Shown one piece after another: positions 5,634-62,647 of a DNA stretch of 64,000 nucleotides. Within the stretch, counting starts at the first letter, position 1. Each line of letters opens with the position of its first letter. Made by a program: the position numbers and the translations under genes. This DNA comes from Flavobacteriia bacterium (GTDB lineage Bacteria; Bacteroidota; Bacteroidia; Flavobacteriales_D; Crocinitomicaceae): the NCBI GenBank assembly GCA_947455515.1, contig CANGOF010000001.1:5049-69048 (forward strand). Direction: 5' to 3'. The notes under the pieces are model-generated. The model saw nothing but the letters and a program-made list of their open reading frames with translations. It made no database searches and was not told where the DNA came from.

Positions 5634-6667
5634 AAAATACGATCACTTTATTAATTCTTATTGTTTTCAGCAACTCCCTAATGAGCCAACTTCAAAAGGG
5701 AGGTAAAAAATGTTTTGAAAGAAATGGAAATAACGGACAAAAATATACAGAATGGCAATGTGGAAAAACTCCTGGAGTTGTTGATTGCAATGGAAAAATT
5801 GACTTCGATGAACGAAGTAAAACATTTACTTCGTCGGCAGGTGGAAAACCTTACACGGGGCAATGTGAAACCTGCTATGAAAATGGTATGAGAGAACGTT
5901 TTATTACATTTCAAAATGGAAAAGAGGTAGGGACGGATACAACTAAATATATGTCTGGATGCCCAATGGTAATCCGAACGCACATTGAAGGTTTTGAAAA
6001 TGGCACTTGGACTTACTTTTATGATAGTACAAACATTGTCGCATGGGAAATGAATTATTTGGTAGGACAAAAACACGGAAAATTTGTCTATTTCAATAGA
6101 GCTGGTGATACAACTTTGTTTGAAAATTACAGTCATGATCAATTACAAGGTACTAAACGAATTTTCTTTAATAACGGGAAAATAAAACGATCAATGAGTT
6201 ACATCAAAGGAAATTTTGATGGTAACTTTGTAAGTTACAACAAAGAAGGTAAAATAATTGAAAAATTAAGTTTTAAAAATGGAAAAAAAGATGGTATGCT
6301 AACTTATTATTACGATGATGGCACACTTTTAAAAACTGAATATTGGCTTAATGACGTCAAGAATGGTCCTTTTACTTCTTATTATTATCAAGGATTTGTC
6401 CAAACATTAGAAAATTACAAAAAAGGAATCAAGGATGGTTGGTTTGAAGAATATTACCCAAATCGAAAATTAAAAATTAGATCACTTTATAAAAAAGGAG
6501 TAATAATTGAAGAACATGAATTTAATGAAAAAGGAAAAGAGGTAAGAACATTTCCTGAAGTTCAAAAAGAAGAAACAAAATCGGAAGATGACGAAATTGA
6601 GTTAGAAGAGAATAAAGAAAAAAAAATAAAAAAAGATAAAAGAAAAAAAGAAGAAGAAGTTAAATAA
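5630..6667 (+). CDS. Secreted MORN-variant (YwqK-like) repeat protein with a K/E-rich tail
   Basis: Signal peptide. Repeated G.K.G.f..YY.nG motifs (GKKDGMLTYYYDDG, VKNGPFTSYYYQG, IKDGWFEEYYPN). Highly charged C-terminus. ATGA overlap with the upstream stop. Confidence 0.6.
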   Translation: MKNTITLLILIVFSNSLMSQLQKGGKKCFERNGNNGQKYTEWQCGKTPGVVDCNGKIDFDERSKTFTSSAGGKPYTGQCETCYENGMRERFITFQNGKEVGTDTTKYMSGCPMVIRTHIEGFENGTWTYFYDSTNIVAWEMNYLVGQKHGKFVYFNRAGDTTLFENYSHDQLQGTKRIFFNNGKIKRSMSYIKGNFDGNFVSYNKEGKIIEKLSFKNGKKDGMLTYYYDDGTLLKTEYWLNDVKNGPFTSYYYQGFVQTLENYKKGIKDGWFEEYYPNRKLKIRSLYKKGVIIEEHEFNEKGKEVRTFPEVQKEETKSEDDEIELEENKEKKIKKDKRKKEEEVK

Positions 6668-7288
6668 TTATTCTCTTGCCAATTTCCCTGCTTTCCAAGA
6701 ATTTATAAAAGTATTCCAAGAGGAAGGATTAAATAAATTATTTACAGGACTTTGTCCCATTGTATAAATCTTAGTATATTGTTGGTTTTGTTGCCAAGAA
6801 TATGTTAACCCAGGATCTGTTGTTACACCTGCAGCGATAAAAGCTAAACTAGAACCAGATAATTGTTTTTGTGCTCTTCGCAAAGCATCATCGTATGGAT
6901 GCATTTCTAAAAAAGCCTTTGCAAAATTCTCTTTAGAAGGCCAAGGATATACAACCGCTGTAGGTAACATTTTTGATTCATCTATCATAACATGTATAAT
7001 CGAATAGCGATCTTCTTTCAATGTGTCAGGAACAATATAAGAAGAAGTTTTATATCCAAAATTTTTAAATAATAAGGTATCTCCAGGTATTACAACAATT
7101 GAGAAATAACCATAATAATCAGATACTGTACCTCTTTTAGAACCTTTATGAAAAACAGTTGTAAATGGTAAATTTTCTAAACTATCAGAAGAAACTATCA
7201 CACCTGACAATTGAATTAAAGTAATAGAATCAGCTTGCCCAAAGGTATAATTACAGATAAATAAAAAAAGAAAAATCAAATTCTTCAT
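6668..7288 (-). CDS. Carboxypeptidase-regulatory-like (CarboxypepD_reg) domain protein
   Basis: The signal peptide begins at the internal Met (MKNLIFLFLF). GVIVS..LPFTTVF.....GTVSDYYGYFSIVVIPGDTLLFKNFGYK matches the prealbumin-like fold pattern. I prefer the start at 7288 over the ORF-track start at 7321. Confidence 0.6.
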   Translation of the reverse strand: MKNLIFLFLFICNYTFGQADSITLIQLSGVIVSSDSLENLPFTTVFHKGSKRGTVSDYYGYFSIVVIPGDTLLFKNFGYKTSSYIVPDTLKEDRYSIIHVMIDESKMLPTAVVYPWPSKENFAKAFLEMHPYDDALRRAQKQLSGSSLAFIAAGVTTDPGLTYSWQQNQQYTKIYTMGQSPVNNLFNPSSWNTFINSWKAGKLARE

Positions 7289-50127: not shown

Positions 50128-50880
50128 CTACTTTTTTCTTTTTGAAACTGTAGTTAAAATAGGAACGATAAATATTGCTATTGTTAACAAAGAAACGAAC
50201 ATATCTGCCGTTTCGCTTTTCATAAATTGCGATATGGCATGAAAAGGGAAAAAGTGTTCGTAAATAGAGAACGATAATTTTAATCCCAATATTGCAATAA
50301 CTATAAAAGCAGAAGATTCTAAAAAAGGAAATTTCTCCATTAATTTAACAAACCATTGCGCAACAAAACGCATAGCTAAAATACCAATAAAAACACCTAT
50401 ACAAATAAGAATAGTATTTGGAGTATACGCAACGGCTGCAAATACATTATCAATAGAAAAAGCCATATCCATTAATTCGACAAGTGCAATTGTAGCCCAA
50501 AAATTACCGATATATCCAACAGTCTTACGATACAACCAATTGGCATTTTTATCTACAATTTCCTCTTCGTTATTACTTTTTTGTTTTTTCTTATACCAGT
50601 CAAAAACAAGGTATAAAAGGTATAGTCCGCCGATAGGTTTTAACCACCAAATTTTAATTAAAACCGAAGCAAACAAAAGTGCAAGTCCTCTAAAGAAATA
50701 TGCACCTAAAATACCATATTTCAATGCTTTTTGTCTTTGATTTTCAGGAAGATCAAGAACCATAGTAGCTAAAACAGCCGCATTATCAATCGATAATAAA
50801 CTTTCAATCAATATTAGGTTACCGATAATAATAAGCGAAGCACCTGGATTATCAATAATTTGTTGGACTAATTCATTCAT
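50128..50880 (-). CDS. TerC-family integral membrane protein
   Basis: Duplicated SIDN motif (LLSIDNAAVLA and AFSIDNVFAAV) within about 7 TM helices. Confidence 0.8.
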   Translation of the reverse strand: MNELVQQIIDNPGASLIIIGNLILIESLLSIDNAAVLATMVLDLPENQRQKALKYGILGAYFFRGLALLFASVLIKIWWLKPIGGLYLLYLVFDWYKKKQKSNNEEEIVDKNANWLYRKTVGYIGNFWATIALVELMDMAFSIDNVFAAVAYTPNTILICIGVFIGILAMRFVAQWFVKLMEKFPFLESSAFIVIAILGLKLSFSIYEHFFPFHAISQFMKSETADMFVSLLTIAIFIVPILTTVSKRKK

Positions 50881-50954: not shown

Positions 50955-51575
50955 TTATTTTGTTTTTAATACAGTATCGTACTTTTTTTCATCTGGACTT
51001 AATAATAATGCCTTTTTAAAATATAAAATTGCTTCATCTTTGCTCCCTAAATTAAATTTAATCCATCCAGCTAAATTAACACCATCAAAATTGAACGGAT
51101 AGCAAGCTATATATGTATTAATATAAGATAATGCATTCTTAAAATCTGCTCTATTATAATAAATTAATGCAAGATTGTAATTTGCTAATGCATGAGTCGG
51201 ATCAATCGATAATATTGCCTTATACTGATCAATAACCAAATCCCATTTTTCAAGTGAGGCTAATGCATAAATATAGCCCATTTTAGCTTCTAAGCTTTTT
51301 GGAGCGAGATCCACTGCTTTTTTGTAATAAACTGTAGATTCTTTAAATTTATTATTGCAATAATATAACCAAGCTAAACGAACATTAATCTCATATGTAT
51401 TAGAAACTGCGTAAGGTGATAACAATTCTACAGCCTTAGCATACTTTAAATTATATTCCTCGATATAACTTTGTTTAAATGCATTACGTAATTCAATTTC
51501 ATTTTGAGTAAATGCAGTTAGAGCAAATATTGAAAACGTTCCAGCAAGTACAATTTTTTTCAATTTATTTTTCAT
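50955..51575 (-). CDS. Secreted TPR-repeat protein, paralog 1
   Basis: Signal peptide. 206 aa, colinear without indels with the next gene (shared blocks LRL.WL.Y, ES..YYKKA, LEKWD, ANY.L.LIYYNR.D, YPF..DG..LAGW.K, FKKAL). Confidence 0.7.
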   Translation of the reverse strand: MKNKLKKIVLAGTFSIFALTAFTQNEIELRNAFKQSYIEEYNLKYAKAVELLSPYAVSNTYEINVRLAWLYYCNNKFKESTVYYKKAVDLAPKSLEAKMGYIYALASLEKWDLVIDQYKAILSIDPTHALANYNLALIYYNRADFKNALSYINTYIACYPFNFDGVNLAGWIKFNLGSKDEAILYFKKALLLSPDEKKYDTVLKTK

Positions 51576-51606
51576 AATTTGTTGTTTTGATTAATTTATT
51601 ATTAAG

Positions 51607-52227
51607 CTATTTAATTCCCAGCACCTTATTAAAGCTTGTATCGTATGGATTTACCATTAGTGCCTTTTTAAAAAAGGCATATGCTTCTTCTTTTTTTCCA
51701 ACACTATATTTTACCCATCCCGCCAAACTATTACCATCATAATCAAATGGGTAAAGATTTACATATTTTTGCAAATACTTCCATGAATTACCATAATCAC
51801 CACGATTATAATAAATTAACGACAAGCGGTAATTGGCAGTTGCGTTATACACATCAATTTTAATGATAGCCAAGTAACTATCAACTACTTGATCCCATTT
51901 TTCTAATGCACCTAAAGGATAAACTATTCCCAATTTCGCTTCAATACTTAGCGGCATTTTAGCAATTGCCTTCTTATAATAAATAATTGATTCTGTATAC
52001 TTTCCCGCTTTATAACTCAACCATCCTAAACGTAAATTTAACTCGTAAGAAGTTGGCTCATATACACCCATTAAATCCTCCATCGCCTTTTGAAATTTTA
52101 GTTGATATTCAGAATCATAACTTTTTTTTAAAGCATCTCGAACAGCATTATCAGATTGAGAAAACAAGAAACTTGAGAAAACTATTACTAATAATAGAAC
52201 CCAAGATTTTTTACTTAAAATTTCCAT
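51607..52227 (-). CDS. Secreted TPR-repeat protein, paralog 2
   Basis: Signal peptide. 206 aa, same length and block structure as 50955..51575. Confidence 0.7.
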   Translation of the reverse strand: MEILSKKSWVLLLVIVFSSFLFSQSDNAVRDALKKSYDSEYQLKFQKAMEDLMGVYEPTSYELNLRLGWLSYKAGKYTESIIYYKKAIAKMPLSIEAKLGIVYPLGALEKWDQVVDSYLAIIKIDVYNATANYRLSLIYYNRGDYGNSWKYLQKYVNLYPFDYDGNSLAGWVKYSVGKKEEAYAFFKKALMVNPYDTSFNKVLGIK

Positions 52228-53615
52228 ATTAAATTTAAGATTAATGAATGATTTAAATAATTATCTGTGTAAGACATGAAGGTGGATTTCTTTGCGCTAT
52301 AATAACGATCATAGCTTGATTCTCTTTTCAACAAGTCGTAACGAATACCAAAATTAAGTTTTTGTGATAAATAATAAGTTAGATTTAACCCTGACTTCAT
52401 CGTTATTTTATCTGAAATATTGTAAACAACATACCCATTTCCTTCCGTAAAATATTTAAGATTTCCTCCATAAAAATAAGCCACATACCAAAGCTTTTTA
52501 GTCACCTCCCCTCCTATTTTAACAAAATAAACAGTTCTATTATTTGATTGATCTTTCGATAAACTAATACCAGTACTCAAATTCAAATTAAAGTTACCAA
52601 AAGGTAAATAATTAATTTGTGAAGAATATTGAGTGATCGAAATTGCGTCTATATAATTATACCCTAAACTAATGGAAGGAATGATTTTACCAATACTTTT
52701 CGACAGACTTACATTTGTTACAAAATTACCTTTTGAAATCTTGTTGTCTATATAACTATATTTAAAAGAAGTAGAATCATAATTAGCTTTTATTTTAGTT
52801 TGTGTGTAGTACATATATTGTCCTCCAACCTGAAGATTAAAGTTTTTTGGAAGCGTAATTGACAAACCTGTATATGCTTGATATTGAGACAAAGTATATG
52901 ATTTAGCCGTATCTTTTATAGATGGTATTAGCGTAAAATTTGCAGCAGTAAGATAACTCTTTGAATAAATATGTTGTTCACGATTATTTTGAACAAGAGA
53001 AACACCTGTATATGCCTTAATGCGTTTAGATATAGGATAACTAATGCCAAATTGATAATAAAGAATAGATTTCATCCTGTCAGATTCAGCATAAATTCCA
53101 TTTCCATGAAGTGAAGTGTCTTTTGTATCTTTTGCAAGGAAAATAGAACTATCTTGTTTATTCGAATAATTAGTAAATTGATAACCTGATTCAAAAACAA
53201 ATGATTTTTGCAACTTAATTTGTTTTGTATAAAAATCTTGATAGCTAATCGGCATTTTAGCAATTATCAACTTGGCTTCTTCCATATTCTCCATATATAA
53301 ATATGCATAAAATAAAAACTCTTTTGTGTACATATCTGAAGGATAAAACTCAAGCGCTTTACGCAAATGAATAGCAGCCAGGTAAAATTCATTTTTATTA
53401 AAATAGGAAACTCCAATTCTTACTCTTAAATAATATGAATCAATCCCCTCTGAAAGAGCTCTTTTTGTCAATGAAACTAATTCTTTATGTTTACCTTTTG
53501 AGAAACAAACATAAGAAGCACTATCCACATAGGATTCTTTGATATTAACATACTTTTGCGCCCACGAAAAGGTAGAAAATACGCTAAGAAAAATAATTAG
53601 GCTTAATTTTCGCAT
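52215..53615 (-). CDS. Outer-membrane protein: N-terminal TPR region plus C-terminal beta-barrel
   Basis: Signal peptide (MRKLSLIIFLSVFSTFSWAQ). TPR-like helices to about residue 130, then about 330 aa of alternating strands ending in the OMP-type terminus LNLIWKF. Confidence 0.6.
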   Translation of the reverse strand: MRKLSLIIFLSVFSTFSWAQKYVNIKESYVDSASYVCFSKGKHKELVSLTKRALSEGIDSYYLRVRIGVSYFNKNEFYLAAIHLRKALEFYPSDMYTKEFLFYAYLYMENMEEAKLIIAKMPISYQDFYTKQIKLQKSFVFESGYQFTNYSNKQDSSIFLAKDTKDTSLHGNGIYAESDRMKSILYYQFGISYPISKRIKAYTGVSLVQNNREQHIYSKSYLTAANFTLIPSIKDTAKSYTLSQYQAYTGLSITLPKNFNLQVGGQYMYYTQTKIKANYDSTSFKYSYIDNKISKGNFVTNVSLSKSIGKIIPSISLGYNYIDAISITQYSSQINYLPFGNFNLNLSTGISLSKDQSNNRTVYFVKIGGEVTKKLWYVAYFYGGNLKYFTEGNGYVVYNISDKITMKSGLNLTYYLSQKLNFGIRYDLLKRESSYDRYYSAKKSTFMSYTDNYLNHSLILNLIWKF

Positions 53616-55825
53616 ATGGCTATTGTTTTGTTATTTGAAGTAGTAATTATAAATTCATTTATTTTATTGGATTTTAAATTCGTGCTATATTGAAATGCTT
53701 TGGATTTAAATCCCAAAATTTTAATCTCGGCGGCAGATTCTAAAATTATTTCTGAAGTGATATTTATATCATCAATAAAAGTATATTTTACAGCATAATT
53801 TGCATTTACAAAGCGATAGAATGGCGAAAAAAAATCTTGAATAATATTTATAAACTTTAATGAAATAGTTGCAATAGGGTATTTTTCTTCAATTATTAAA
53901 TCTTGATAATAACCCAAAACTAATTTATAGTGTGCTAAATAAAAATGATATAATAACGATTTTTTGGAGCCAAAGAAACTTGTAAAAACAATCATATTAC
54001 CATCATTATAAAAATATGCTACTGCCTTAGTATCGTGACAATAAATATAGGAAACATTTAAACTATCTGTAAAAATTTCCCATTGTTGAGACTTAACTTC
54101 TTGATTTTCCTCCTTAATTTTCCAATTTAATTTTGTTCCTGGAATTAATTCAAAAGCAAGTTTTAATAACGGATTCACTTCGATACTTTGAATAAATTCA
54201 CCTTCATTTGGTTTCGAAAAAGAGTGTAGACTAAACTTTTTATTTTCTCGTTTGATATAATATGCTAAAGGAAAATCTAAAGTTTTGGAACCTATGATTG
54301 GAGATTCTTGTAGCTGAAAATGTATGTGAGGTTCTGGAGATCTTCCAGAATTACCACAATAAGCAATAATCTCCCCTTTTTTCACAAATTCACCAATTCC
54401 ATATTTTAAAGAACCCATTTTTAAATGACTGACTTGGCTATATAATCCATCTGCATGATAAATTACCATGGAATTACCCCAGTTCTGTTGTGTATTTATA
54501 CCTTTTATTTCATTATCCTCTATATTATCCATGACAGAAACAACGTAGCCATCTGCACAAGCAACGACAGGTTTATTATAGCAATAAAAATCATCCACTA
54601 CCTGTCCAGGATTTTGATAAGATTTCATTTCATTATCCAATATGATAAAATCAAATGCTTTACTCCATTCTCCAAGATGCGTAATTTTACCATCATGCGC
54701 TTGGGATACCATCCATTCTCCCCAAAAAGGTAAATGAATTGGAAAAAAATTAAACAGGCGTAAACGGTGGTTTGTATTCAAAAAATTATATAAATTTTTC
54801 TCTGGACTAAACTCTTGATGATGAACCCTGTGAATATATTTAATGGAAACTCGATAATTTAACACATGTAAAAACAAAATAGTTAACAACGTAAATGGTA
54901 AAGAATATGGAGCTAACCCTACCATATAAAGTATTTTATTTAAGCCAAATAATAGGATAATCAATAAAGGAGTTAGAACAACCGTCATGAAATAGCTAAC
55001 AATATTTGGAATCAAATAAATTCCACCAATTGCGATTGCAAGAAAAATAAAATTTAATCCAATAAATTTCTCGTAAAAATCAGAAACATCTCCACCCAAC
55101 ATAGGATAAAAGAAATACGCAGCTACAAATCCAAGTATTGATAAACTAAATGCAATTCGAGAATAAACTAATAAGCCAATTGCAATCAAAAGTCCAGATA
55201 AAATGTTTGACTGAAAAAAAAGAGAGGATAGAGATTTTAAATAAACGGATACAATCTGCGGAAATGAAAGCAAATGATTTTCAAGCTTATCAATTGTTTC
55301 TAACCAAATGGAGATTGTTACCCCTGAAACTTTTTGTTTTTCATTCAAAGAATAAATTAATTCCGGATGAACTTGCATTGTAGACATCGACGGAAAAGCA
55401 CTGAAGACTAACCAAATGGAAATTAAAAAAGGGAAACTCAGTGTGGGTAAATTGTATTTATGTAAAATCCCATGAATTAAAAATGAAATCAAAGTTGAGA
55501 AAATACCAACACATACGATTACCAATAAGACTGTTTCATTAAACGAATAAAAATGAGCAATCCCACTTGCCACCAACATTGCGTCATATCCGTGATATCC
55601 TTTTCGAATAAACTCTTTATTCAAACCAATTACACGAGAAAACACATTTGCTGAAACAACACCAATTAGGCCACAAATACCAGCTAAAGGATCTACAAAA
55701 GAAGCCAATAAAAGTAATAGCCCAAACACTACATTGTTAGAAAAGAACACAACTGCATAGCTGTTGACGATAGTGTCAAAGCTATACAGAAGTTCTTTCT
55801 TAGCTATGGAAAGCCATTTATTCAT
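53603..55825 (-). CDS. Fusion protein: urea-transporter-like polytopic membrane domain plus M23 (LytM-type) metallopeptidase domain plus C-terminal domain of unknown function
   Basis: The N-terminal ~330 aa hold about 10 TM helices opening with SYAVVFFSNNVVFGLLLLLA, which parallels the UT-family signature (s.Qv.F.nN..sGllil.a). The central part has AFDF, VVACADGYVV, WGNSMVIYHADGLYSQVSHL and GNSGRSPEPHIHFQL (HxH) of M23. Confidence 0.7.
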   Translation of the reverse strand: MNKWLSIAKKELLYSFDTIVNSYAVVFFSNNVVFGLLLLLASFVDPLAGICGLIGVVSANVFSRVIGLNKEFIRKGYHGYDAMLVASGIAHFYSFNETVLLVIVCVGIFSTLISFLIHGILHKYNLPTLSFPFLISIWLVFSAFPSMSTMQVHPELIYSLNEKQKVSGVTISIWLETIDKLENHLLSFPQIVSVYLKSLSSLFFQSNILSGLLIAIGLLVYSRIAFSLSILGFVAAYFFYPMLGGDVSDFYEKFIGLNFIFLAIAIGGIYLIPNIVSYFMTVVLTPLLIILLFGLNKILYMVGLAPYSLPFTLLTILFLHVLNYRVSIKYIHRVHHQEFSPEKNLYNFLNTNHRLRLFNFFPIHLPFWGEWMVSQAHDGKITHLGEWSKAFDFIILDNEMKSYQNPGQVVDDFYCYNKPVVACADGYVVSVMDNIEDNEIKGINTQQNWGNSMVIYHADGLYSQVSHLKMGSLKYGIGEFVKKGEIIAYCGNSGRSPEPHIHFQLQESPIIGSKTLDFPLAYYIKRENKKFSLHSFSKPNEGEFIQSIEVNPLLKLAFELIPGTKLNWKIKEENQEVKSQQWEIFTDSLNVSYIYCHDTKAVAYFYNDGNMIVFTSFFGSKKSLLYHFYLAHYKLVLGYYQDLIIEEKYPIATISLKFINIIQDFFSPFYRFVNANYAVKYTFIDDINITSEIILESAAEIKILGFKSKAFQYSTNLKSNKINEFIITTSNNKTIAICEN

Positions 55826-55834
55826 TTTTCAAAA

Positions 55835-57199
55835 TTACAAATTAAACGTTTTCAAATGATCTGGCATTCTTTCTGGTTCAGTAATTGTCTTAAGTGTTTC
55901 GTTTTCACGAATAATATGAGAATTACCGTTTGTATCAATTAACGTTACTTTTGGTCTCATTGCAATAAACTGCATCCATTGCGTCATATTGTAAGCGCCC
56001 ACTTTATGGACAACAACATGGTCGCCTTTATTTAATGCTGGCAAAGTAACGCTTGATCTAACTACATCAATATTCATACATAGTGGACCATAAATTACCA
56101 TATCTTCTGTATGTGAGGAGAATTCTTGTGCTGGTGTAATTTTGTGTTCGTACCAGAAAGCTGTGAATAAGATGTTTACACCAAAGTCCATGATGGTTGC
56201 TCTTCTTCCGTCTGATAAACGTTTGTTCGCAATTACACTTCCCAATAGATACCCCGCATCGTCAATCATTGCACGACCAGTTTCCAAAATCAATAAAGGT
56301 AAGTCTTCTTTCTTAAAACCATAATTCAATATTGTATTTGTAATTACCTCAGCAAATTCATCGATTGATGGAATCATATCTGGTCCTGGCAAATATGCAC
56401 CTCTTAATGTGTTAGCAGAAGGGAAACCACCACCTAAATCAAGGTATTGAATCGTTTTATTAAATACATATTTAATATTTACAGCTAAATCTGAAAGTTT
56501 TGATGCGGCTACAGCATAGGCATTTGGATCTAACATAAAAGTTCCTATATGACAGTGTAGACCAACCATTTCAAGGTATTCAGAAGCCATTATTTTATTA
56601 ATTGCATTCCAAGCTTGACCAGACTCATAGTTGAATCCAAAGCGATCCCACATTGGATAAACTCCTGTATCCATATTTACACGAATCGCAACTTTAGCTG
56701 TTTTTTTCAATTCTTGTGTCAATTCAATTAAATCGTATAATTCATCAAAATGATCAATGTGGATATAAGAATTGTTTTCTAAGGCTACTTGTAAGTCTGC
56801 TTTTGTTTTTTCAGGACCATTAAAAATGATTTTATTTCCAGGCACACCATTTTCAATTGCCTTAGTATATTCAAAAATAGAAACTACTTCTGCCCAAGAA
56901 CCTTCTTGATGGAAAACGTTACATACAGCATCAATGTAGTTTGTTTTGTAACTCCAAGCGAATTGTACTTTAGGATAACGCGTTTTAAAAGCTCGAACCG
57001 CATTTTGGTATGTTTTACGAATGGTTCTTTCCGAGATTACGAAACATGGAGAACCATATTTGTTAATCAATTCTTTTACAGATACCCCATCAATGTGAGT
57101 AAATGGAGCATATTCCGTTCTTGTTCCGAATTTATTCATCAATCCTGTATTCATTTTACGGATAGCAGGTCTTTCGTATTTTAATTTTTCAGTTTTCAT
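55835..57199 (-). CDS. PLP-dependent decarboxylase, Orn/DAP/Arg decarboxylase family 2 (LysA-like)
   Basis: PLP-Lys context FAWSYKTNY, LHCHIGT, DLGGGFP phosphate loop, EPGRA-like ETGRAM and YGPLCMNIDV active-site Cys. It has about 35 extra N-terminal residues before the usual start of the fold. Confidence 0.85.
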   Translation of the reverse strand: MKTEKLKYERPAIRKMNTGLMNKFGTRTEYAPFTHIDGVSVKELINKYGSPCFVISERTIRKTYQNAVRAFKTRYPKVQFAWSYKTNYIDAVCNVFHQEGSWAEVVSIFEYTKAIENGVPGNKIIFNGPEKTKADLQVALENNSYIHIDHFDELYDLIELTQELKKTAKVAIRVNMDTGVYPMWDRFGFNYESGQAWNAINKIMASEYLEMVGLHCHIGTFMLDPNAYAVAASKLSDLAVNIKYVFNKTIQYLDLGGGFPSANTLRGAYLPGPDMIPSIDEFAEVITNTILNYGFKKEDLPLLILETGRAMIDDAGYLLGSVIANKRLSDGRRATIMDFGVNILFTAFWYEHKITPAQEFSSHTEDMVIYGPLCMNIDVVRSSVTLPALNKGDHVVVHKVGAYNMTQWMQFIAMRPKVTLIDTNGNSHIIRENETLKTITEPERMPDHLKTFNL

Positions 57200-57292
57200 A
57201 ATATTAAGTTTTTTAGTTACTTCAACACCGCTCAGTCGGACACCTAAACTCTATGTGACCATAACGGAAAAAGGTTTGTTATTAATTATATT

Positions 57293-58348
57293 TTACAATT
57301 CTCCGAAAGCGGATATTTTTTGAAATTCAGTTACATCTGTAATTAAGTCCCAAGCGTATCGAATAAATAGTTTTCCAACCGCATAAGATGTGTATGGATC
57401 TACTTTTTCACCTAAAGCTAACTTAACCAGTGAGGCAGGTTGATTTTGTCCAGCACCGACAGTTAAATAAATCCAAGCTGGGAAACGAGGGTTTACTTCC
57501 ATAATATATGGTTTACCATCATTTGTTCGCATGATTTCTATTTCAAATCCTCCTCTCCACTTAGTAGCATTTATGAATTTCGAAGCTAAATCAATCAAAG
57601 ATTGTTCTTCAAGTGTTATTCCTGCCCATGCTTTCCCTTTGTCAGTAATAAACAATTTACGCATTGGAACTGCAGAAATTGTATTTCCTTCTCCGTCACC
57701 TAAAGCAGCAATATTTACTTCAGTTCCAGAAATAAACTCTTGTACAATGATTGGAAGTCCCCATTTTGCATTTAGTTTATGATAAGCTTTTTGAGCTTGT
57801 TCTAAAGTATATGCAACAGTAGCTTCGTAATATTTGCCTTTCACTACAATTGGATATTCGAATTCTTTGGCTACTCCAGCTAATTCGTTTACATCGTAAA
57901 TAGTTTTATCTCTTGGAATTAGAAAGCCGTGTTTTTCACCAAATTTGAATAAATTCACTTTATCTCGCGCTTCAAATTGTTCATTTGTTGGTAAGAAAGT
58001 TGAAATACCAATTTCTTTTAATTGTTTCGATATTTTGATAAAATTATGTAATTCAGCATCAAAATTTGGAATAATTACATCTATTTTTTCAACTGAATGA
58101 ATGTATTCTAATCTGCTCATCAAAGTATCTGTTCCAGCTGCAGGATACGGAATTTGGTATACTTTGTCGGCAATTCCTTCCATGTAAATACCTGGTTCTA
58201 ATGACTCATAGGATAATCCGATGATTCTAACGTCAAAATCCTCGCAATCTCGGATCCCACGTATTACAGCAACTCCTGGTCCAGGACTATCCACGGCATT
58301 TAAACCAGTGACTGCTACTGTAAGTTTGCGTTTCGTAGTATTAGACAT
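57293..58348 (-). CDS. ATP-grasp family ligase (carboxylate-amine/peptide ligase type)
   Basis: Pre-ATP-grasp Rossmann (LTVAVTGLNAVDSPGPG), PIVVKGKYYEA, IVQEFISGTEV and FEIEIMRT..GKPYIMEVNPRFPAW (E.NPR Mg/ATP motif). Confidence 0.8.
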   Translation of the reverse strand: MSNTTKRKLTVAVTGLNAVDSPGPGVAVIRGIRDCEDFDVRIIGLSYESLEPGIYMEGIADKVYQIPYPAAGTDTLMSRLEYIHSVEKIDVIIPNFDAELHNFIKISKQLKEIGISTFLPTNEQFEARDKVNLFKFGEKHGFLIPRDKTIYDVNELAGVAKEFEYPIVVKGKYYEATVAYTLEQAQKAYHKLNAKWGLPIIVQEFISGTEVNIAALGDGEGNTISAVPMRKLFITDKGKAWAGITLEEQSLIDLASKFINATKWRGGFEIEIMRTNDGKPYIMEVNPRFPAWIYLTVGAGQNQPASLVKLALGEKVDPYTSYAVGKLFIRYAWDLITDVTEFQKISAFGEL

Positions 58349-58586
58349 GACTAACTAAAAAATGGTCTTGTAATTGAGAAATAAAATCTTCGTAATCTTT
58401 CTCGAAAGCACCTGGTTCAACTTCATATTTTGCACTAATTTCTTTCTTAATCTCATTTAAAGATTTACCTTCTTTCATTAATCGAATGATATCGGCACCA
58501 ACAGCATTTGTTGAGAAAGAATCTCCATTGGATGGGTTAAAGATAAAACCACTATCGCTAACCGCTAAATTTGAATTTATTTTCAT
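58341..58586 (-). CDS. PqqD-family protein (RiPP-recognition-element-like small winged-helix protein)
   Basis: 81 aa. GFIFNPSNGDSFSTNAVGADIIRLMKEGKSLNEIKKEISAKYEV....FEKDYEDFISQL follows the PqqD pattern (...ln.tg..iw.ll.g..s..ei...l...y.v......Dv..fl..L). 8-nt overlap with the ATP-grasp gene. Confidence 0.7.
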   Translation of the reverse strand: MKINSNLAVSDSGFIFNPSNGDSFSTNAVGADIIRLMKEGKSLNEIKKEISAKYEVEPGAFEKDYEDFISQLQDHFLVSHV

Positions 58587-58710
58587 GTTTTCTATTTTTA
58601 TATTTGTTGTTATCTACACTTCAAATATGAAAAATAAATCATTTGACAAAAAATAAAAGATACGTAGGGGAATAAAAAAGAGATGAAAGTTTGATTTTCG
58701 TCGAAAAAAA

Positions 58711-59439
58711 CTATTCATCTTCGGAAATCTCTAAACCTAAGGATTTATATAAAGGGACTTTGTAGCTATCTCCAATAAAAAGCTCCGTTTCTTCAATCGT
58801 AAGACGGGTTTTTTTTATCGATGTTATCTTGCTTAAATTTACGATATAAGATTTGTGTATACGTTTAAAACCTAACAATTCAAGCCTTTCTTCTATTGAC
58901 TTCATACTCATTCGAGTTATAATTGGCTTTGAAATGTTAGTTAAATAGATTTTTATATAGTCTTTCAGGCCTTCAATATAAGCTATATCTGGAATATTTA
59001 CTTTAACTAAACTATAATCGGAATTAACAAAAATATAGTCTGGAGGTAATTGTTTTAAAACCGAAGGAGTAGAATTATGTATTAAACTATGTGTCTCTTT
59101 AACTTTGAGTACACTTTTATAAAAACGATCAAAGGAAAAAGGTTTAACCAAATAATCGATCACATCTAATTCAAAACCTTCTAAAGCATATTTTTTATAT
59201 GCAGTTGAAAAAATAATATATGGCTTTTGTTTCAGCGACTGAACAAACTGAATGCCATTAATTTCTGGCATTTCAACGTCAACAAAAATTAAATCGACGT
59301 ATTCATTTTCAAGAATTTCATAAGCTTGAATGGCATTTCTACAAGTAGTAACCAATTGCAAAAAAGGTACTTTTTGAACAAAATCAGCCATCATTTCTAA
59401 TGCTAACGGTTCGTCATCTATGCAAATACATTTAATCAT
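58711..59439 (-). CDS. LytR/AlgR-family response regulator (receiver + LytTR DNA-binding domain)
   Basis: The receiver has DDEP and phospho-acceptor DLIFVDVEMPEINGI. C-terminal LytTR pattern (I.YIEGLKDYIKIY......RMSMK.IEE.L....F.RIHKSYIVNL). Confidence 0.9.
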   Translation of the reverse strand: MIKCICIDDEPLALEMMADFVQKVPFLQLVTTCRNAIQAYEILENEYVDLIFVDVEMPEINGIQFVQSLKQKPYIIFSTAYKKYALEGFELDVIDYLVKPFSFDRFYKSVLKVKETHSLIHNSTPSVLKQLPPDYIFVNSDYSLVKVNIPDIAYIEGLKDYIKIYLTNISKPIITRMSMKSIEERLELLGFKRIHKSYIVNLSKITSIKKTRLTIEETELFIGDSYKVPLYKSLGLEISEDE

Positions 59440-60493
59440 CTTTTAAAATTGCTAATGACAAAGATACACAATACCAGTTTGATTCTTTAGAAACATTTAA
59501 TTGGTATTTAGTTGGGTATAATAAATCCAAACGACGTTTCACATTTACTAATCCAATACCTTGATTTTTTGAATCAAATTTAGAATAATTTTCTTTGAAT
59601 TTATTTTTTACATCCAACTGAAAACGATTTTTATTAATATAAATATGAATCTCAATTTCAGGAGAATCAATGACAGACGTCCCATGCTTAAATGCATTTT
59701 CGATATAAGGTATCAACAACATAGGTTCAATATTCAATTCCAAATCCGAAGGAATATCTACCTTTTGGATAATATTAACTGTATCTCCAAAACGAATCAC
59801 TTGTAAATCAATATAATCTGAGATATATTCTAATTCGTCATGAATAGAAACTTTATCTTCATCTGATTCATATAGCATATATCGAATAATAGAAGCAAGT
59901 TTTAACAAACTTCCCTCCGCTTTTTCGGATTGTTTACGAACTAATATGATACTACTATTTAGTGCATTAAAAATAAAATGAGGACTAATTTGAGAACGAA
60001 GAAAAGACAATTCTGTCTTTAAATTTTCCGTTTCCTTTTCTTTTCTTAATTTCTCTTCTTTAAATCTATCAGTCAATAAACGGTATGAGATACTAATAAA
60101 AAGAATAAAAAGTAATGGTAATGATAAAGCAATTAATTGATTTCCACGAATACTTTCAGGAGAAGGTATCCCACGACCTAAATTTGGTGGTGGAATATAA
60201 GTGGGTAAAAACGGGAAAATAAAATAGGATATAGAAAGTATGGTAATAATTAAGATTAGAAGTGAACTAATATAAATGACTGAACTTCTTTTTAATAATT
60301 TTGGTATAAGTACAGAACTATTAAAATAGAAAATGAAGATAAAATAAATGTGATTTACAAGTAAATGCTCATCCAAAAATTGTATTCCCTCACTTGGGAT
60401 TGGTTGAACACCTTTAGGATCAACAAAAGGAACTAAATAAAAAGCTATCCAAAAAAAGAGATGAAGAGAGAAATTAAACAAAGAAATTTTCAT
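59432..60493 (-). CDS. LytS/YehU-type sensor histidine kinase (membrane-embedded sensor, no large periplasmic domain)
   Basis: Four N-terminal TM helices, His_kinase box LRSQISPHFIFNALNS and an ATPase domain with IENAFKHG and GIGLVNVKRRL. 8-nt overlap with the regulator gene. Confidence 0.85.
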   Translation of the reverse strand: MKISLFNFSLHLFFWIAFYLVPFVDPKGVQPIPSEGIQFLDEHLLVNHIYFIFIFYFNSSVLIPKLLKRSSVIYISSLLILIITILSISYFIFPFLPTYIPPPNLGRGIPSPESIRGNQLIALSLPLLFILFISISYRLLTDRFKEEKLRKEKETENLKTELSFLRSQISPHFIFNALNSSIILVRKQSEKAEGSLLKLASIIRYMLYESDEDKVSIHDELEYISDYIDLQVIRFGDTVNIIQKVDIPSDLELNIEPMLLIPYIENAFKHGTSVIDSPEIEIHIYINKNRFQLDVKNKFKENYSKFDSKNQGIGLVNVKRRLDLLYPTKYQLNVSKESNWYCVSLSLAILKDD

Positions 60494-60499
60494 CGTATT

Positions 60500-62647
60500 T
60501 TATTTCTTCTTTTTCTCTTTTTTAGCGGCTTTTTTAGCTGTTTTTAAATTTTCAACCGGTGCAAGTAGTTTTTGTTCCGCTAAATCTGGATCAAAATCCA
60601 TCCCTCTTACAAAACCTTCTGTTCGACGATTTAACGAATGTAGTTTTTCAAACTTAATTGGATCTTTTGTTTTAAACTGAAGTATATATTTTTCCGTTAA
60701 TACTACAGCCTTTCCTCTTTCATCAATCCATTTAACAGGTTCTTTTTCACCTTTTCCAACAGGAATTAAACGACGTATGTCAATTCCTTTTTCTTGTACT
60801 AAATATTGTACACATTCACGTGCACGGTTATTCGATAATTTCAAGTTAAATTCATCATTTCCACGGCAATCCGTATGCGAACTCAATTCCAAAATCATTT
60901 TAGGGTATTTCATTAAAACATCATAGACGAAATTCAGTGAATCTTTAGAACTAATAGTAGAATCTTGCAATAATTCCCATTTTCCAAAGGCATATCTAAC
61001 TTCAGGAATACGAATTTTTTCTTCCGGAATTAACAGAGGAACATCAATAATGAAATTTTGATCGTAACGCAAACCTCGCGTAGTGAATTGCGTTTCACTT
61101 TTGTTTTTTTCAGCACCAACGCGGTACGTTAGAATTGTATAATCTGTATTTTCTTTAATAACTCGTTCCCCATTTGCTTTATTCTCAAAAAATATCACTC
61201 CCTTTTTATCCGTAAATCCTTCCACTTTAGAACTATCCGACCCAATTATTACCACTTTAACATTTCCTAATTTTTTTTCAATTTGACCTAATTTGCTAAC
61301 AATGATTTTAATATCATACTTGTTCGGAGGTAATTGATATCTATATAAATCCGTTTTAAAAGTTTTACCTAAACCTGTTTTACGTTCCGAAGTAAAATAC
61401 CCTTCCGTTTCATTGATTTCTATTAAACTAAAATCATTACCTTCAGAATTTCGAGGATATCCAATATTTTCCGCTTTTTCCCAAGTGTTTTTTCCATTTG
61501 CAGAACTCTTAATTGCTTTAAAAATATCTAAACCACCTATCCCTGGTCTTCCATCGGATGAGAAATATAAATCTTCATACGCATTAAATGTAGGGAACAT
61601 TTCATTACCTGCGGTATTAATCTCAGGCCCTAAATTTACCGGTGGTGACCATATGTCTGCTTTTTTAGAATACGTAGAATACCACAAATCTTTCCCCCCA
61701 AAACCACCAGGTAATTCTGATACAAAAATTAAAAAATTACCATCAGCAGATACACAAGGATGACCAATAGAAACTGAGTCTGCATTTTTTAAAGGTAGTT
61801 TGATAGGCTCAGCCCAATCTTTACCTCTCAATTCTGACATCCAAATTTCACAACCAAGGTTTTTATTTTTTTCATAAGGACAACGAGTAAAAAACATTTT
61901 CTTGAATTTACTATCAAAACAAACTGTTCCTTCATTAAATTCGGTGTTAATTTTTTCTCCAGGTAGAAGAATAGGTTCTCCAAAATTTCCTTTTTTATCA
62001 ATCTGAGTTAACCATAAATCCATATGTCCCTCCCCTGTTCTTGGATCTGTATCGCCACTAAAAGTACTTGGTCGATTCGAACTGAAAACTAAAGAAGCTT
62101 TCTTTTTATCTGCAAAAACGGTAGACATATCAATTCCATCTTTATTTAAAATTGATAAATTTGTAATAAGGTGATTAGTTTTGTTAGCCATAAATTTGGC
62201 TACTTCTTTACATGCAACCAAGCCGGCATCAGCTTTAGAATCATTAGGTACCAATGCTTTATAGGAATTATAATTTTCTATGGCTAAATTATAATCTCCC
62301 ATGTAACGAATCATTTCTGCATAATAGAATAAAACAACAGGATTAATCAATTGATAATTAACTACCAGTGCTTTTTGATACCAATCTAATGCATTCTTGT
62401 AGTCTTCCAACATTCTATAACATTCACCCGTTTTGAAAGCCATATCTCCTTTTCGTTCAGAAGCTTTTCTGCTTTTAGGATTCACCTTATCAAACGCATG
62501 AATTGTAAGCTTTACGGCTTCTACATAATTCTCATCATAAAACGACTTATTTGCTTTTTTAATTTCCTTTGGTTCCTGCCCAAAAGCCTGAAAAGCAAGC
62601 GTTAACAAACAAAAAAAGAATATATTACGGAATAACATAATTTTCAA
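60500..62647 (-). CDS. OmpA-family protein with TPR and PD40 (TolB-like) repeats
   Basis: Signal peptide, TPR (YKNALDWYQKAL, GDYNLAIENY) and PD40 repeats ending GHMDLWLTQ, GGKDLWYS and GGLDIFKA. C-terminal OmpA domain (LSSHTDCRGNDEFNLKLSNNRARECVQYL). Confidence 0.8.
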   Translation of the reverse strand: MKIMLFRNIFFFCLLTLAFQAFGQEPKEIKKANKSFYDENYVEAVKLTIHAFDKVNPKSRKASERKGDMAFKTGECYRMLEDYKNALDWYQKALVVNYQLINPVVLFYYAEMIRYMGDYNLAIENYNSYKALVPNDSKADAGLVACKEVAKFMANKTNHLITNLSILNKDGIDMSTVFADKKKASLVFSSNRPSTFSGDTDPRTGEGHMDLWLTQIDKKGNFGEPILLPGEKINTEFNEGTVCFDSKFKKMFFTRCPYEKNKNLGCEIWMSELRGKDWAEPIKLPLKNADSVSIGHPCVSADGNFLIFVSELPGGFGGKDLWYSTYSKKADIWSPPVNLGPEINTAGNEMFPTFNAYEDLYFSSDGRPGIGGLDIFKAIKSSANGKNTWEKAENIGYPRNSEGNDFSLIEINETEGYFTSERKTGLGKTFKTDLYRYQLPPNKYDIKIIVSKLGQIEKKLGNVKVVIIGSDSSKVEGFTDKKGVIFFENKANGERVIKENTDYTILTYRVGAEKNKSETQFTTRGLRYDQNFIIDVPLLIPEEKIRIPEVRYAFGKWELLQDSTISSKDSLNFVYDVLMKYPKMILELSSHTDCRGNDEFNLKLSNNRARECVQYLVQEKGIDIRRLIPVGKGEKEPVKWIDERGKAVVLTEKYILQFKTKDPIKFEKLHSLNRRTEGFVRGMDFDPDLAEQKLLAPVENLKTAKKAAKKEKKKK

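Follow-up and report, generated by a model that had tools for sequence, protein, structure and literature searches.

What might nine closely packed genes on one strand of a Crocinitomicaceae genome make together, and where would their product go? The question is raised by contig CANGOF010000001.1 (assembly GCA_947455515.1), of which a stretch of 64,000 nucleotides (nt) was analysed; this whole stretch is referred to below as the window, and all coordinates are window positions. An original prediction, based on the letters of the DNA and their translations, had described the genes as a cluster headed by a LytS/LytTR pair that makes an amide derived from an amino acid or peptide and exports it or uses it in the periplasm, with regulated cell-wall remodelling as the alternative. 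The conserved unit consists of six genes, which encode a PqqD-like protein, an ATP-grasp ligase, a pyridoxal phosphate (PLP) decarboxylase, a UT-family protein fused to an M23 peptidase (UT::M23), a barrel protein with tetratricopeptide repeats (TPR) and a further TPR protein. Our leading interpretation, to which we give somewhat less than an even chance, is that the locus is a six-gene machine that ligates, decarboxylates, cuts and exports, under the control of the LytS/LytTR pair in this genome.

An open reading frame (ORF) map made over 48-64 kb of the window places all nine ORFs on the minus strand, and together with the hairpin call it reproduces the coordinates, gene order, spacings, overlaps and terminator hairpin of the original prediction. 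The GC content is ~30% throughout, and the nearest relatives are freshwater Flavobacteriia/Crocinitomicaceae metagenome-assembled genomes (MAGs). The six core genes are arranged as follows (RRE, RiPP recognition element; RiPP, a peptide made by the ribosome and modified after translation; aa, amino acids):

58341-58586, minus strand: PqqD-like protein of the RRE fold, 81 aa; 8-nt overlap with the ATP-grasp gene
57293-58348, minus strand: ATP-grasp ligase; 93-nt gap to the decarboxylase gene
55835-57199, minus strand: PLP decarboxylase; 9-nt gap to the UT/M23 gene
53603-55825, minus strand: UT/M23 fusion; 13-nt overlap with the 466-aa TPR-barrel ORF
52215-53615, minus strand: TPR-barrel, 466 aa; 13-nt overlap with the TPR2 gene
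51607-52227, minus strand: TPR2, secreted, 206 aa; 31-nt gap to the TPR1 gene

In a scan of one genome per GTDB species, relatives of the UT::M23 protein were found to be encoded in 265 species. The best 80 loci, which were taken for context analysis, all come from MAGs of the Flavobacteriales, Chitinophagales, Bacteroidales (including Prolixibacteraceae/Mariniphaga) and Sphingobacteriales, and among the more than 2,700 full-length homologues of the protein every source name that bears an organism is that of a Bacteroidota MAG. The window proteins were then searched against naive ORFs of the relatives' loci, and families were counted by clustering across 81 Bacteroidota loci, with UT/M23 present in 81, the barrel in 80, the decarboxylase and the TPR protein in 73 each, the ATP-grasp in 69 and the PqqD-like protein in 68. 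The six genes follow one order on one strand in ~70 of these 81 loci and in at least four orders of the phylum, the full six-gene order is present wherever the contig is long enough, and three distant examples have the neighbours seen in the window. Translational overlaps are likewise retained, with medians of -8 nt for PqqD/ATP-grasp and -13 nt for both UT-M23/barrel and barrel/TPR, and the six-gene set was seen again in ~60 further metagenome loci. Because order and overlaps recur in ~70 of the 81 Bacteroidota loci and in those ~60 metagenome loci, the arrangement lies far beyond chance. The neighbourhood conservation on which the original prediction had been staked is therefore strong, and its description of a single unit, read in one direction and extending from the cytoplasm across inner membrane and periplasm to the outer membrane, is supported.

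None of the core proteins, and none of the UT::SIR2 variants described below, matched anything in PADLOC, and the pattern of conservation is unlike that of defence islands; a defence system was accordingly discarded as a candidate. Full-text searching of the accessible literature returned no description or functional assignment of the cluster, in keeping with the original prediction, which knew of no characterised system with this gene set. The combination of UT and M23 is known only as a listed domain architecture to which no function is given (PMC12998343). The gene set thus apparently represents an undescribed, new kind of system assembled from known domains, the function of which is hypothetical.

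An exhaustive HMMER search with the ATP-grasp returned 237 representative clusters at E < 1e-30, including tandem double ATP-grasps of ~710 aa. The gene contexts of these proteins, together with a metagenome scan, uncovered a second architecture. On high-GC metagenome contigs outside the Bacteroidota the operon comprises a large secreted TPR protein, a PqqD protein, a double ATP-grasp, a decarboxylase and a UT domain fused to SIR2 (UT::SIR2), and only these five families recur across the 21 loci of this type. Examples of the UT::SIR2 gene are found at L086 11541-13217, L090 7233-9344 and L092 6084-7583 and in L093-L106, where the double ATP-grasp measures ~715 aa; in L090 alone the fusion partner of the UT domain is SIR2 together with a GNAT acetyltransferase. 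The L090 decarboxylase is 40% identical to that of the window and has the same catalytic loop. Gene fusions were also found, joining PqqD to ATP-grasp (P0397) and ATP-grasp to decarboxylase (P0369). These fusions and domain swaps show the PqqD-like protein, ATP-grasp and decarboxylase to act together as one functional unit, and the module behind the UT domain to be an interchangeable amide-cleaving or amine-modifying enzyme. Judged from sequence, the enzyme trio is accompanied by a predicted UT-family channel with a cytoplasmic amide-cleaving tail (M23 here; SIR2 with or without GNAT elsewhere) and a periplasmic TPR protein, and in Bacteroidota additionally by a putative TPR-bearing outer-membrane barrel.

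The chemistry of the trio is best approached through the decarboxylase, which carries the Pfam domains Orn_Arg_deC_N and Orn_DAP_Arg_deC and retains the features expected of an alanine-racemase-fold decarboxylase, namely the PLP lysine (SYK85TN), the glycine loop (DLGGGF) and the catalytic cysteine C374. The original prediction had drawn a parallel with TabA of the tabtoxin locus; in the PDB the matches of the decarboxylase are led by FigC/FslC (7kh2, 207 bits), followed by LysA of M. jannaschii (171 bits) and BtrK (99 bits). Both relevant NCBIfam models fall short of their cut-offs, LysA (TIGR01048) with 219.6 against 297.9 bits and FslC (NF041039) with 237.8 against 500 bits. The catalytic loop, GPLCMNID, does not vary among the 71 homologues compared; within it (C374-M375-N376) Met375 occupies the place of the acidic residue that in LysA binds the distal amine, and Thr346 stands at the position of Arg343 of diaminopimelate decarboxylase (DAPDC). 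This arginine binds the distal carboxylate of meso-diaminopimelate (meso-DAP), according to the published FigC study, in which FigC, SbnH, AcsE, MccE and BtrK are placed in one clade. What each of these five enzymes decarboxylates is an amino-acid moiety joined to a larger molecule. The specificity helix GVNxLFTxFWY (LFTAFWY in the window) is nearly invariant and hydrophobic across the 71 homologues. By these sequence features the enzyme is an alanine-racemase-fold member of the FigC/BtrK/MccE/DAPDC clade and not LysA; the latter identity, which would have counted against the original prediction, was rejected on the cut-off and on the absence of both DAP-binding determinants. With the contacts for a free distal amine or carboxylate lost, the pocket suits an acylated, neutral side chain, and we infer that the enzyme acts on an amino acid of which the side-chain end is already held in an amide or other neutral linkage.

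The ligase that could provide such a linkage matches the Pfam families ATPgrasp_Ter and ATP-grasp_3, has NCBIfam matches too, and groups with the CPS-like (carbamoyl-phosphate synthase) ATP-grasp, ATPgrasp_Ter and PRK12767 families. When the family profile was compared with solved structures the uncharacterised 2pn1 ranked first and the CPS large subunit next, with biotin carboxylases and Ddl/VanA far behind; a weak similarity to the Pfam family Dala_Dala_lig_C was also recorded. Conservation of the enzyme is high, its best 120 matches being 70-97% identical, compared with a drop to ~40% for UT/M23 over the same taxa. A stand-alone paralogue with 45% identity is encoded at L091 9001-10056 on a Bacteroidota contig beside an uncharacterised protein of 1263 aa, in a setting that has no PqqD, decarboxylase or UT genes; ATP-grasp paralogues thus occur in unrelated contexts as well.

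The PqqD-like protein scores 45.3 bits with Pfam PqqD (cut-off 23.4) and has partial NCBIfam matches to lasso and other PqqD chaperones. Among 68 loci its N-terminal beta region, NIAxSDSGFxFNPxxGDSFSxN, is nearly invariant and its C-terminal tail variable. Precursors were sought among all ORFs of 12-75 aa outside large ORFs in the 80 Bacteroidota loci and, for the 21 loci of the SIR2 type, among those of 60 aa or more; the outcome of this search is weighed below. Given the near-invariant N-terminal region and the lack of a conserved small ORF, a conserved protein segment or the ATP-grasp itself is the more likely ligand of the PqqD-like protein than a hypervariable RiPP leader. The variable tail also rules out that this protein is a C-terminal carrier of the LysW kind.

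The UT/M23 protein (Pfam UT, 187.5 bits; Peptidase_M23, 51.9 bits) consists of a UT domain at ~aa 1-325, an M23 domain at ~aa 360-535 and an all-beta C-terminal domain at ~aa 540-740 (AlphaFold2 pLDDT 89). In the model the UT domain has 10 transmembrane helices, and no such helix occurs after ~residue 325; Foldseek aligns the fold with that of the Desulfovibrio transporter dvUT (3k3f) at a TM score of 0.83 and E 6e-15. The M23 domain resembles the structures of DipM, Csd, ShyA and lysostaphin, with partial NCBIfam matches to Pgp3, MepM, ShyA and DipM, and its catalytic and zinc residues H383, D392, H467, H500 and H502 are invariant in 62 sequences. The C-terminal beta domain returned no separate match among the best 50 Foldseek matches or in a PDB profile search. 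UT proteins have both termini in the cytoplasm, SIR2 requires NAD and GNAT requires acetyl-CoA. A cytoplasmic location is predicted for both the M23 and the beta domain, because no transmembrane helix follows the UT domain, because of the charge pattern (the N-terminus is rich in K, the central loop acidic, and the linker behind the last helix rich in K/R) and because SIR2 and GNAT occupy the equivalent position in sister operons. A cytoplasmic M23 domain argues against a role in peptidoglycan or cell-wall remodelling; the candidate of a periplasmic cell-wall hydrolase is disfavoured by the predicted topology, which would not place the domain outside the cytoplasm, and the original alternative of a regulated remodelling module is undercut by this topology and by the SIR2/GNAT swaps. 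The linker at residues 335-346 (window ~54790-54825) carries a near-invariant Q-x-F-S-P-E-K-N-L-Y motif, with Q337 and E342 invariant in the 62 sequences, and is a candidate docking or attachment site.

The pore motifs LPxL(S/G)xPF and FFQxN are partly kept, with changes from Q to S and from T to S/G relative to dvUT, and because of these alterations the selectivity of the UT domain may differ from urea. Although the fold itself is that of a urea transporter, the protein scores 113.2 bits with the urea-transporter equivalog TIGR03441, of which the cut-off is 274.6, and no conserved urease or urea carboxylase genes were found near UT/M23 in the 81 Bacteroidota and the metagenome loci. Canonical urea transporters (dvUT, UT-A/UT-B, Yut) thus share the fold and the LP-box-like motifs with this protein, and differ from it in lacking the M23 and beta fusion, in their pore motifs, in equivalog score and in urea-metabolism neighbours.

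The route across the outer envelope is suggested by the last two genes. Pfam offers no match for the 466-aa protein. The AlphaFold2 model of it (pLDDT 89) comprises a signal peptide, about four TPR-like helix pairs at residues 27-130 and a beta-barrel of ~14 strands at 138-465, and the chain ends in WKF. Foldseek matches of the barrel include FadL, OmpG and porins, with BcsC at rank 24. The model thus supports a secreted protein that combines TPRs with a putative outer-membrane barrel. Its gene adjoins that of UT/M23 in 80 of the 81 loci, and a 100% identical copy of the protein exists in public assemblies. Both 206-aa proteins match Pfam TPR families; TPR2, which has an N-terminal segment resembling a signal peptide, belongs to the family found in 73 of 81 loci and is the conserved sixth core gene, and the second paralogue, TPR1, is lineage-specific, occurring in a minority of loci from Crocinitomicaceae-like and a few other genomes. 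The domain calls of the original prediction were upheld throughout by Pfam and NCBIfam and, for the 466-aa protein, by the AlphaFold2 model and Foldseek.

If these parts are put in sequence, the ATP-grasp, positioned by the PqqD-like protein, would link the side-chain end of an amino acid with a carboxylate or amine of a carrier, the candidates for which are a small acid and a conserved segment of a protein or peptide. The free alpha-amino-acid end of the tethered residue would then be decarboxylated to a primary amine, after which the hydrolase fused at the mouth of the channel would cut the amide and free a small product into the UT pore, from where it would leave via the periplasmic TPR proteins and the outer-membrane barrel. 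We infer the carrier, the amino acid, the order of the steps, the direction of transport and the product. Of what the original prediction had proposed, the formation and export of an amide or amine stands, in that ligation, decarboxylation and export remain the best reading, and its cell-wall alternative and its RiPP and graspetide analogies have been weakened.

Several observations weigh against the scheme. The 80 Bacteroidota loci yielded no conserved small ORF as a source of a carrier or precursor, shadow ORFs of the PqqD gene being the only ones to form a cluster, and of the ORFs of 60 aa or more in the 21 loci of the SIR2 type none belongs to a recurrent family other than the five core ones; it is because of this result that the 'tether' carrier is hypothetical. 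The cytoplasmic placement of M23 rests on homology and cofactor logic. The pore motifs of the UT domain are conserved only in part, and an amine product might not pass, because pores of this family are narrow and known for neutral molecules of the size of urea. The partnership of enzymes and channel is not universal either. Loci L026, L042, L064 and L074 carry UT/M23, barrel and TPR genes without an adjacent enzyme trio; unrelated genes extend over 8-10 kb upstream of them, and the trio is elsewhere in the genome or absent. Conversely, in L087-L089 the enzymes are accompanied by a 637-aa protein without a detectable UT or other Pfam domain. The gene order of these three loci (e.g. L087 3972-13583) is PqqD, an 871-aa ATP-grasp::decarboxylase fusion and then the 637-aa protein; ahead of these come a giant TPR protein (>1900 aa), a TonB_C-like protein and a HEAT-repeat protein of 879 aa.

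Elements of the scheme have precedents, each of which departs from the locus in important respects. In the rhizoferrin pathway of Francisella (FigA/FigC, or FslA/FslC), to which the SbnH and AcsE steps are related, a side chain is likewise joined to a carboxylic acid before PLP-dependent decarboxylation, and the decarboxylase shares with FigC the Cys-Met loop that marks the loss of free side-chain-amine binding. This Cys-Met pair is, however, the only shared feature among those that define FigC/FslC: Ile377 stands here in place of His357 of FigC, and the specificity helix, which in FigC is marked by Thr/Tyr residues, is hydrophobic and reads LFTAFWY. The ligase is an ATP-grasp, unlike the NIS (NRPS-independent siderophore) synthetase of the Fig/Fsl systems, of which none occurs in any locus; those systems in turn lack PqqD, UT, M23 and TPR partners, and no siderophore receptor is present here. 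In the butirosin pathway (BtrI/BtrJ/BtrK) the ATP-grasp BtrJ loads a carrier, BtrK decarboxylates the tethered residue and a later enzyme strips a helper group. The butirosin carrier is a phosphopantetheinylated acyl carrier protein that holds its cargo as a thioester, whereas no acyl carrier protein is encoded here and the small partner has the PqqD/RRE fold. Ligation by an ATP-grasp to a small carrier, modification in the tethered state and release by a metallohydrolase are also the hallmarks of the LysW pathways with LysX/ArgX and LysK; these employ a different hydrolase family and no membrane channel, and LysW carriers have a conserved acidic C-terminal tail where that of the PqqD-like protein is variable.

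RRE-dependent RiPP and pearlin-type pathways resemble the locus in their stand-alone or fused PqqD/RRE domain acting with a modifying enzyme, and in that a protease could free the product from a scaffold. Yet no precursor or scaffold gene is conserved here, the protease is fused to a channel, and the ligase is an ATP-grasp instead of a PEARL, YcaO, radical SAM enzyme or lasso cyclase. With a PqqD/RRE protein present and a co-encoded precursor peptide missing, and with an ATP-grasp whose best models (ATPgrasp_Ter, the CPS-like PRK12767, 2pn1 and CPS) are not RimK-like (RimK_fam, 32 bits against a cut-off of 143), the analogies that the original prediction had drawn to RiPPs and graspetides are weak. 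At the outer end of the pathway the closest parallels are BcsC, PgaA, AlgK/AlgE and PelB, which likewise combine a TPR-bearing outer-membrane barrel with an extra periplasmic TPR protein, and weak NCBIfam matches to the PgaA and PrsT TPR proteins were recorded. In contrast to synthase-dependent exopolysaccharide secretion, however, the conserved set includes no glycosyltransferase synthase and no cyclic di-GMP receptor; its partner in the inner membrane is a channel of the UT type, and the barrel, with ~14 strands, is smaller.

How do other explanations of the same gene set compare? One that we consider unlikely is that peptidoglycan stem peptides are edited or recycled in the cytoplasm: embedded meso-DAP would be decarboxylated to a Lys-like residue, the Ddl/VanA-like ATP-grasp would add or re-ligate a residue, M23 would cut the epsilon-amide of DAP/Lys, SIR2/GNAT would deacylate or acylate the new epsilon-amine, and the envelope proteins would couple these reactions to the wall. 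That precisely the determinants for the distal amine and carboxylate of free DAP are both lost is what would be expected if these groups were in peptide bonds; M23 enzymes typically cut peptidoglycan cross-links, the partial NCBIfam matches are those named above, and SIR2 and GNAT act on lysine epsilon-amines, to which the faint Dala_Dala_lig_C resemblance may be added. Across more than 150 loci, however, no Mur, Mpl, Ldc or AmpG-type genes are associated with the system, no part played by the PqqD/RRE fold with D-amino-acid stem peptides is known, cytoplasmic editing requires neither a UT channel nor an outer-membrane barrel, and the enzymes are absent, as far as matches show, from the best-known cultured Bacteroidota, all named matches being MAGs. 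An explanation of much the same low probability has the enzymes modify, in RiPP-like fashion, a protein encoded elsewhere or a product of the operon itself, such as the TPR protein or the cytoplasmic segment of the UT fusion, which PqqD would bind, the ATP-grasp extend by a residue on a side chain, the decarboxylase trim and M23/SIR2 process or reverse. It draws on the PqqD/RRE fold as the peptide-binding element of many RiPP pathways, with its lasso and other chaperone relatives, on the likeness of the PqqD::ATP-grasp fusion to RRE-fused RiPP enzymes, on the near-invariant beta-strand region, which suggests a conserved peptide or protein ligand, on the TPR protein being the only non-enzymatic partner kept in both architectures, and on SIR2 normally acting on protein acyl-lysine. 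It has to contend with the lack of a conserved small ORF in or near the 80 + 21 loci, with TPR partners that range from 200 to >1900 aa, with an ATP-grasp that is not of the RimK-like graspetide type, and with a graspetide survey (PMC8939145) in which the terms 'urea', 'M23' and 'decarboxylase' do not occur.

Still less probable, in our estimate, is that the barrel and UT protein import a small urea-like or amide compound for assimilation or sensing, with conversion by the cytoplasmic M23/SIR2 and the enzymes. The genuine UT fold, the database name of urea transporter and the nearest characterised relatives of the ATP-grasp, which are the ATP-grasp domains of carbamoyl-phosphate synthase and biotin/urea carboxylase, point in that direction, and arginase and CPSase genes flank one locus (L001). 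Those neighbours are not conserved, and a urea-cycle link was dropped on that account; nor are urease, allophanate hydrolase, biotin carrier or carboxyltransferase associated with the system, the protein lies far below the NCBIfam urea-transporter cut-off (113 against 274.6 bits), and the pairing of an ATP-grasp with an amino-acid decarboxylase is biosynthetic, not catabolic. Equally improbable is a function linked to metals, whether a small metal-binding amine or amide is made and exported as a metallophore (chalkophore-like) or the system protects from metal stress. The closest solved decarboxylase does serve the synthesis of a siderophore, rhizoferrin, and the neighbourhood, described below, offers AraC regulators, immediately upstream in 11 + 2 loci, of which the N-domain is HMA-like, a YHYH/MORN/SCO1-SenC trio that adjoins the operon and in L032 lies inside it, ArsR-type HTH and glyoxalase genes beside two SIR2-type loci, and in the window a TerC gene downstream of the operon, besides an ATP-grasp that belongs to the 'Ter operon' Pfam family. 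Each of these associations is nevertheless lineage-specific and confined to a minority of loci, SCO1 and YHYH are absent from 80 metagenome loci, the HMA match lies below its Pfam cut-off, and neither a TonB-dependent receptor nor a system for re-uptake is conserved. The metal-related neighbours, though real, are confined to particular lineages.

The remaining features of the locus concern its control and its borders:

60500-62647, minus strand: OmpA/TPR/PD40 gene; 6 nt between its end and the kinase gene
59432-60493, minus strand: LytS-type membrane histidine kinase; 8-nt overlap with the regulator gene
58711-59439, minus strand: LytTR-family response regulator; 124-nt gap to the PqqD-like gene
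58587-58710, minus strand: intergenic promoter region of the core operon, with a direct repeat and a -7-like element
50955-51575, minus strand: TPR1, secreted paralogue of 206 aa; followed by the hairpin
50934-50912, minus strand: terminator-like hairpin with a 10-bp stem, a 3-nt loop and a T-rich tail, which closes the operon

The kinase carries the Pfam domains His_kinase (PF06580, 82 bits) and HATPase_c_5, and the regulator Response_reg and LytTR; with these domains goes a pair of putative target repeats. The promoter region contains an imperfect direct repeat with a period of 21 nt and an 8/10 match, formed by CATCTCTTTT at 58685-58676 and CGTATCTTTT at 58664-58655, as well as a Bacteroidetes -7-like element, CATATTTG, at 58629-58622. 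Direct repeats with a 21-nt period represent the classical geometry of LytTR sites. Relatives with an adjacent response regulator have perfect 10/10 repeats in the same register, ~85-105 nt upstream of the start codon; these are of the CGTATC type in the Crocinitomicaceae group and of the CCGATAC type elsewhere, as exemplified by two copies of TTCGTATCTT in L014 and two of the CCGATAC type in L055, L069, L081 and L082. To judge from these repeats, the LytTR regulator probably activates the core operon directly. A sigma-70 promoter scan gave fewer matches than in shuffles, Bacteroidota using other promoters. The LytTR regulator is adjacent to the core in ~27 of the 81 loci and the kinase in 21, and in 11 loci (L020, L041, L053, L057, L061, L063, L065, L066, L067, L073 and L076; also seen in L138 and L163) a 200-aa AraC-type regulator (HTH_18) lies directly upstream of the PqqD gene instead, with many loci having neither. 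The description of the cluster as headed by LytS/LytTR consequently holds for about a third of the loci, and the pair is accessory, one of several interchangeable regulators. The N-domain of the AraC-type protein is weakly HMA-like, with a CHCC motif and 16.9 bits against a Pfam cut-off of 24.8.

Other neighbours vary between lineages. The 715-aa OmpA/TPR/PD40 protein upstream of the kinase is PorE-like, with 403.7 bits for NCBIfam PorE of the type IX secretion system (cut-off 600) and 294 bits for the CHU_0125 OmpA-like family; its gene is adjacent in 11 loci only, all of them close relatives, and is probably not part of the system. The Rfam scan of the gaps yielded neither a riboswitch nor any other RNA, its only result being a sub-threshold 'mir-1010' match at the PorE/kinase junction (60442-60531, on either strand, 29 bits where the gathering score is 70), which is palindromic, overlaps a terminator-like hairpin at 60524-60542 on the plus strand and is almost certainly a chance match. 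Immediately downstream of the operon terminator lies a gene for a TerC-family membrane protein (50128-50880, minus strand), a position kept only in 5 close relatives; a link through the Pfam family of the ATP-grasp, 'ATP-grasp with Ter operon', is possible but unsupported. A trio of YHYH (PF14240), MORN_2 and SCO1-SenC genes is inserted between regulator and PqqD gene in L056/L059/L079 (~5000-7130) and, inside the operon, between ATP-grasp and decarboxylase in L032 (6520-8492), with SCO1 also found in L037, L074 and L080, a hint that copper is involved in some Chitinophagales-like lineages. Two independent SIR2-type loci are flanked by genes for a regulator with an ArsR/SmtB-type HTH and a protein of the glyoxalase fold (L086 2049-3027; L090 9991-10755). 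In two Bacteroidales-like loci (L047 9030-9947 and L076 9029-9985) a gene of the IF-2B family (PF01008), which comprises sugar-phosphate isomerases such as MtnA, separates the decarboxylase and UT/M23 genes.

What would the system mean for the bacteria that carry it? It is present in those 265 GTDB species and in thousands of metagenomic proteins, almost all from uncultured Bacteroidota, with the sister architecture in other bacteria. The current annotations of its proteins as 'urea transporter', 'carbamoyl-phosphate synthase large subunit' and 'diaminopimelate decarboxylase' are probably misleading, and an ATP-grasp that remains at least 70% identical across orders among its best 120 matches points to one defined, conserved product. 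A broader claim, which we regard as doubtful and hold with less confidence than the reading of this locus, is that these operons form a new class of trans-envelope machine, distributed over several phyla, that tethers, modifies and releases: an RRE protein would operate without a RiPP precursor, an amine would be built on a carrier by an ATP-grasp and a FigC-like decarboxylase, and an amidase fused to a UT-fold channel with a non-urea function would make cleavage and export one step, the product being a new conserved small signal or envelope metabolite. The bacteria concerned are abundant in fresh water and soil. If true, the scheme would give the UT fold a second function, M23 peptidases a cytoplasmic role and RRE domains a role beyond RiPPs, and hydrolase-gated export would constitute a new design principle.

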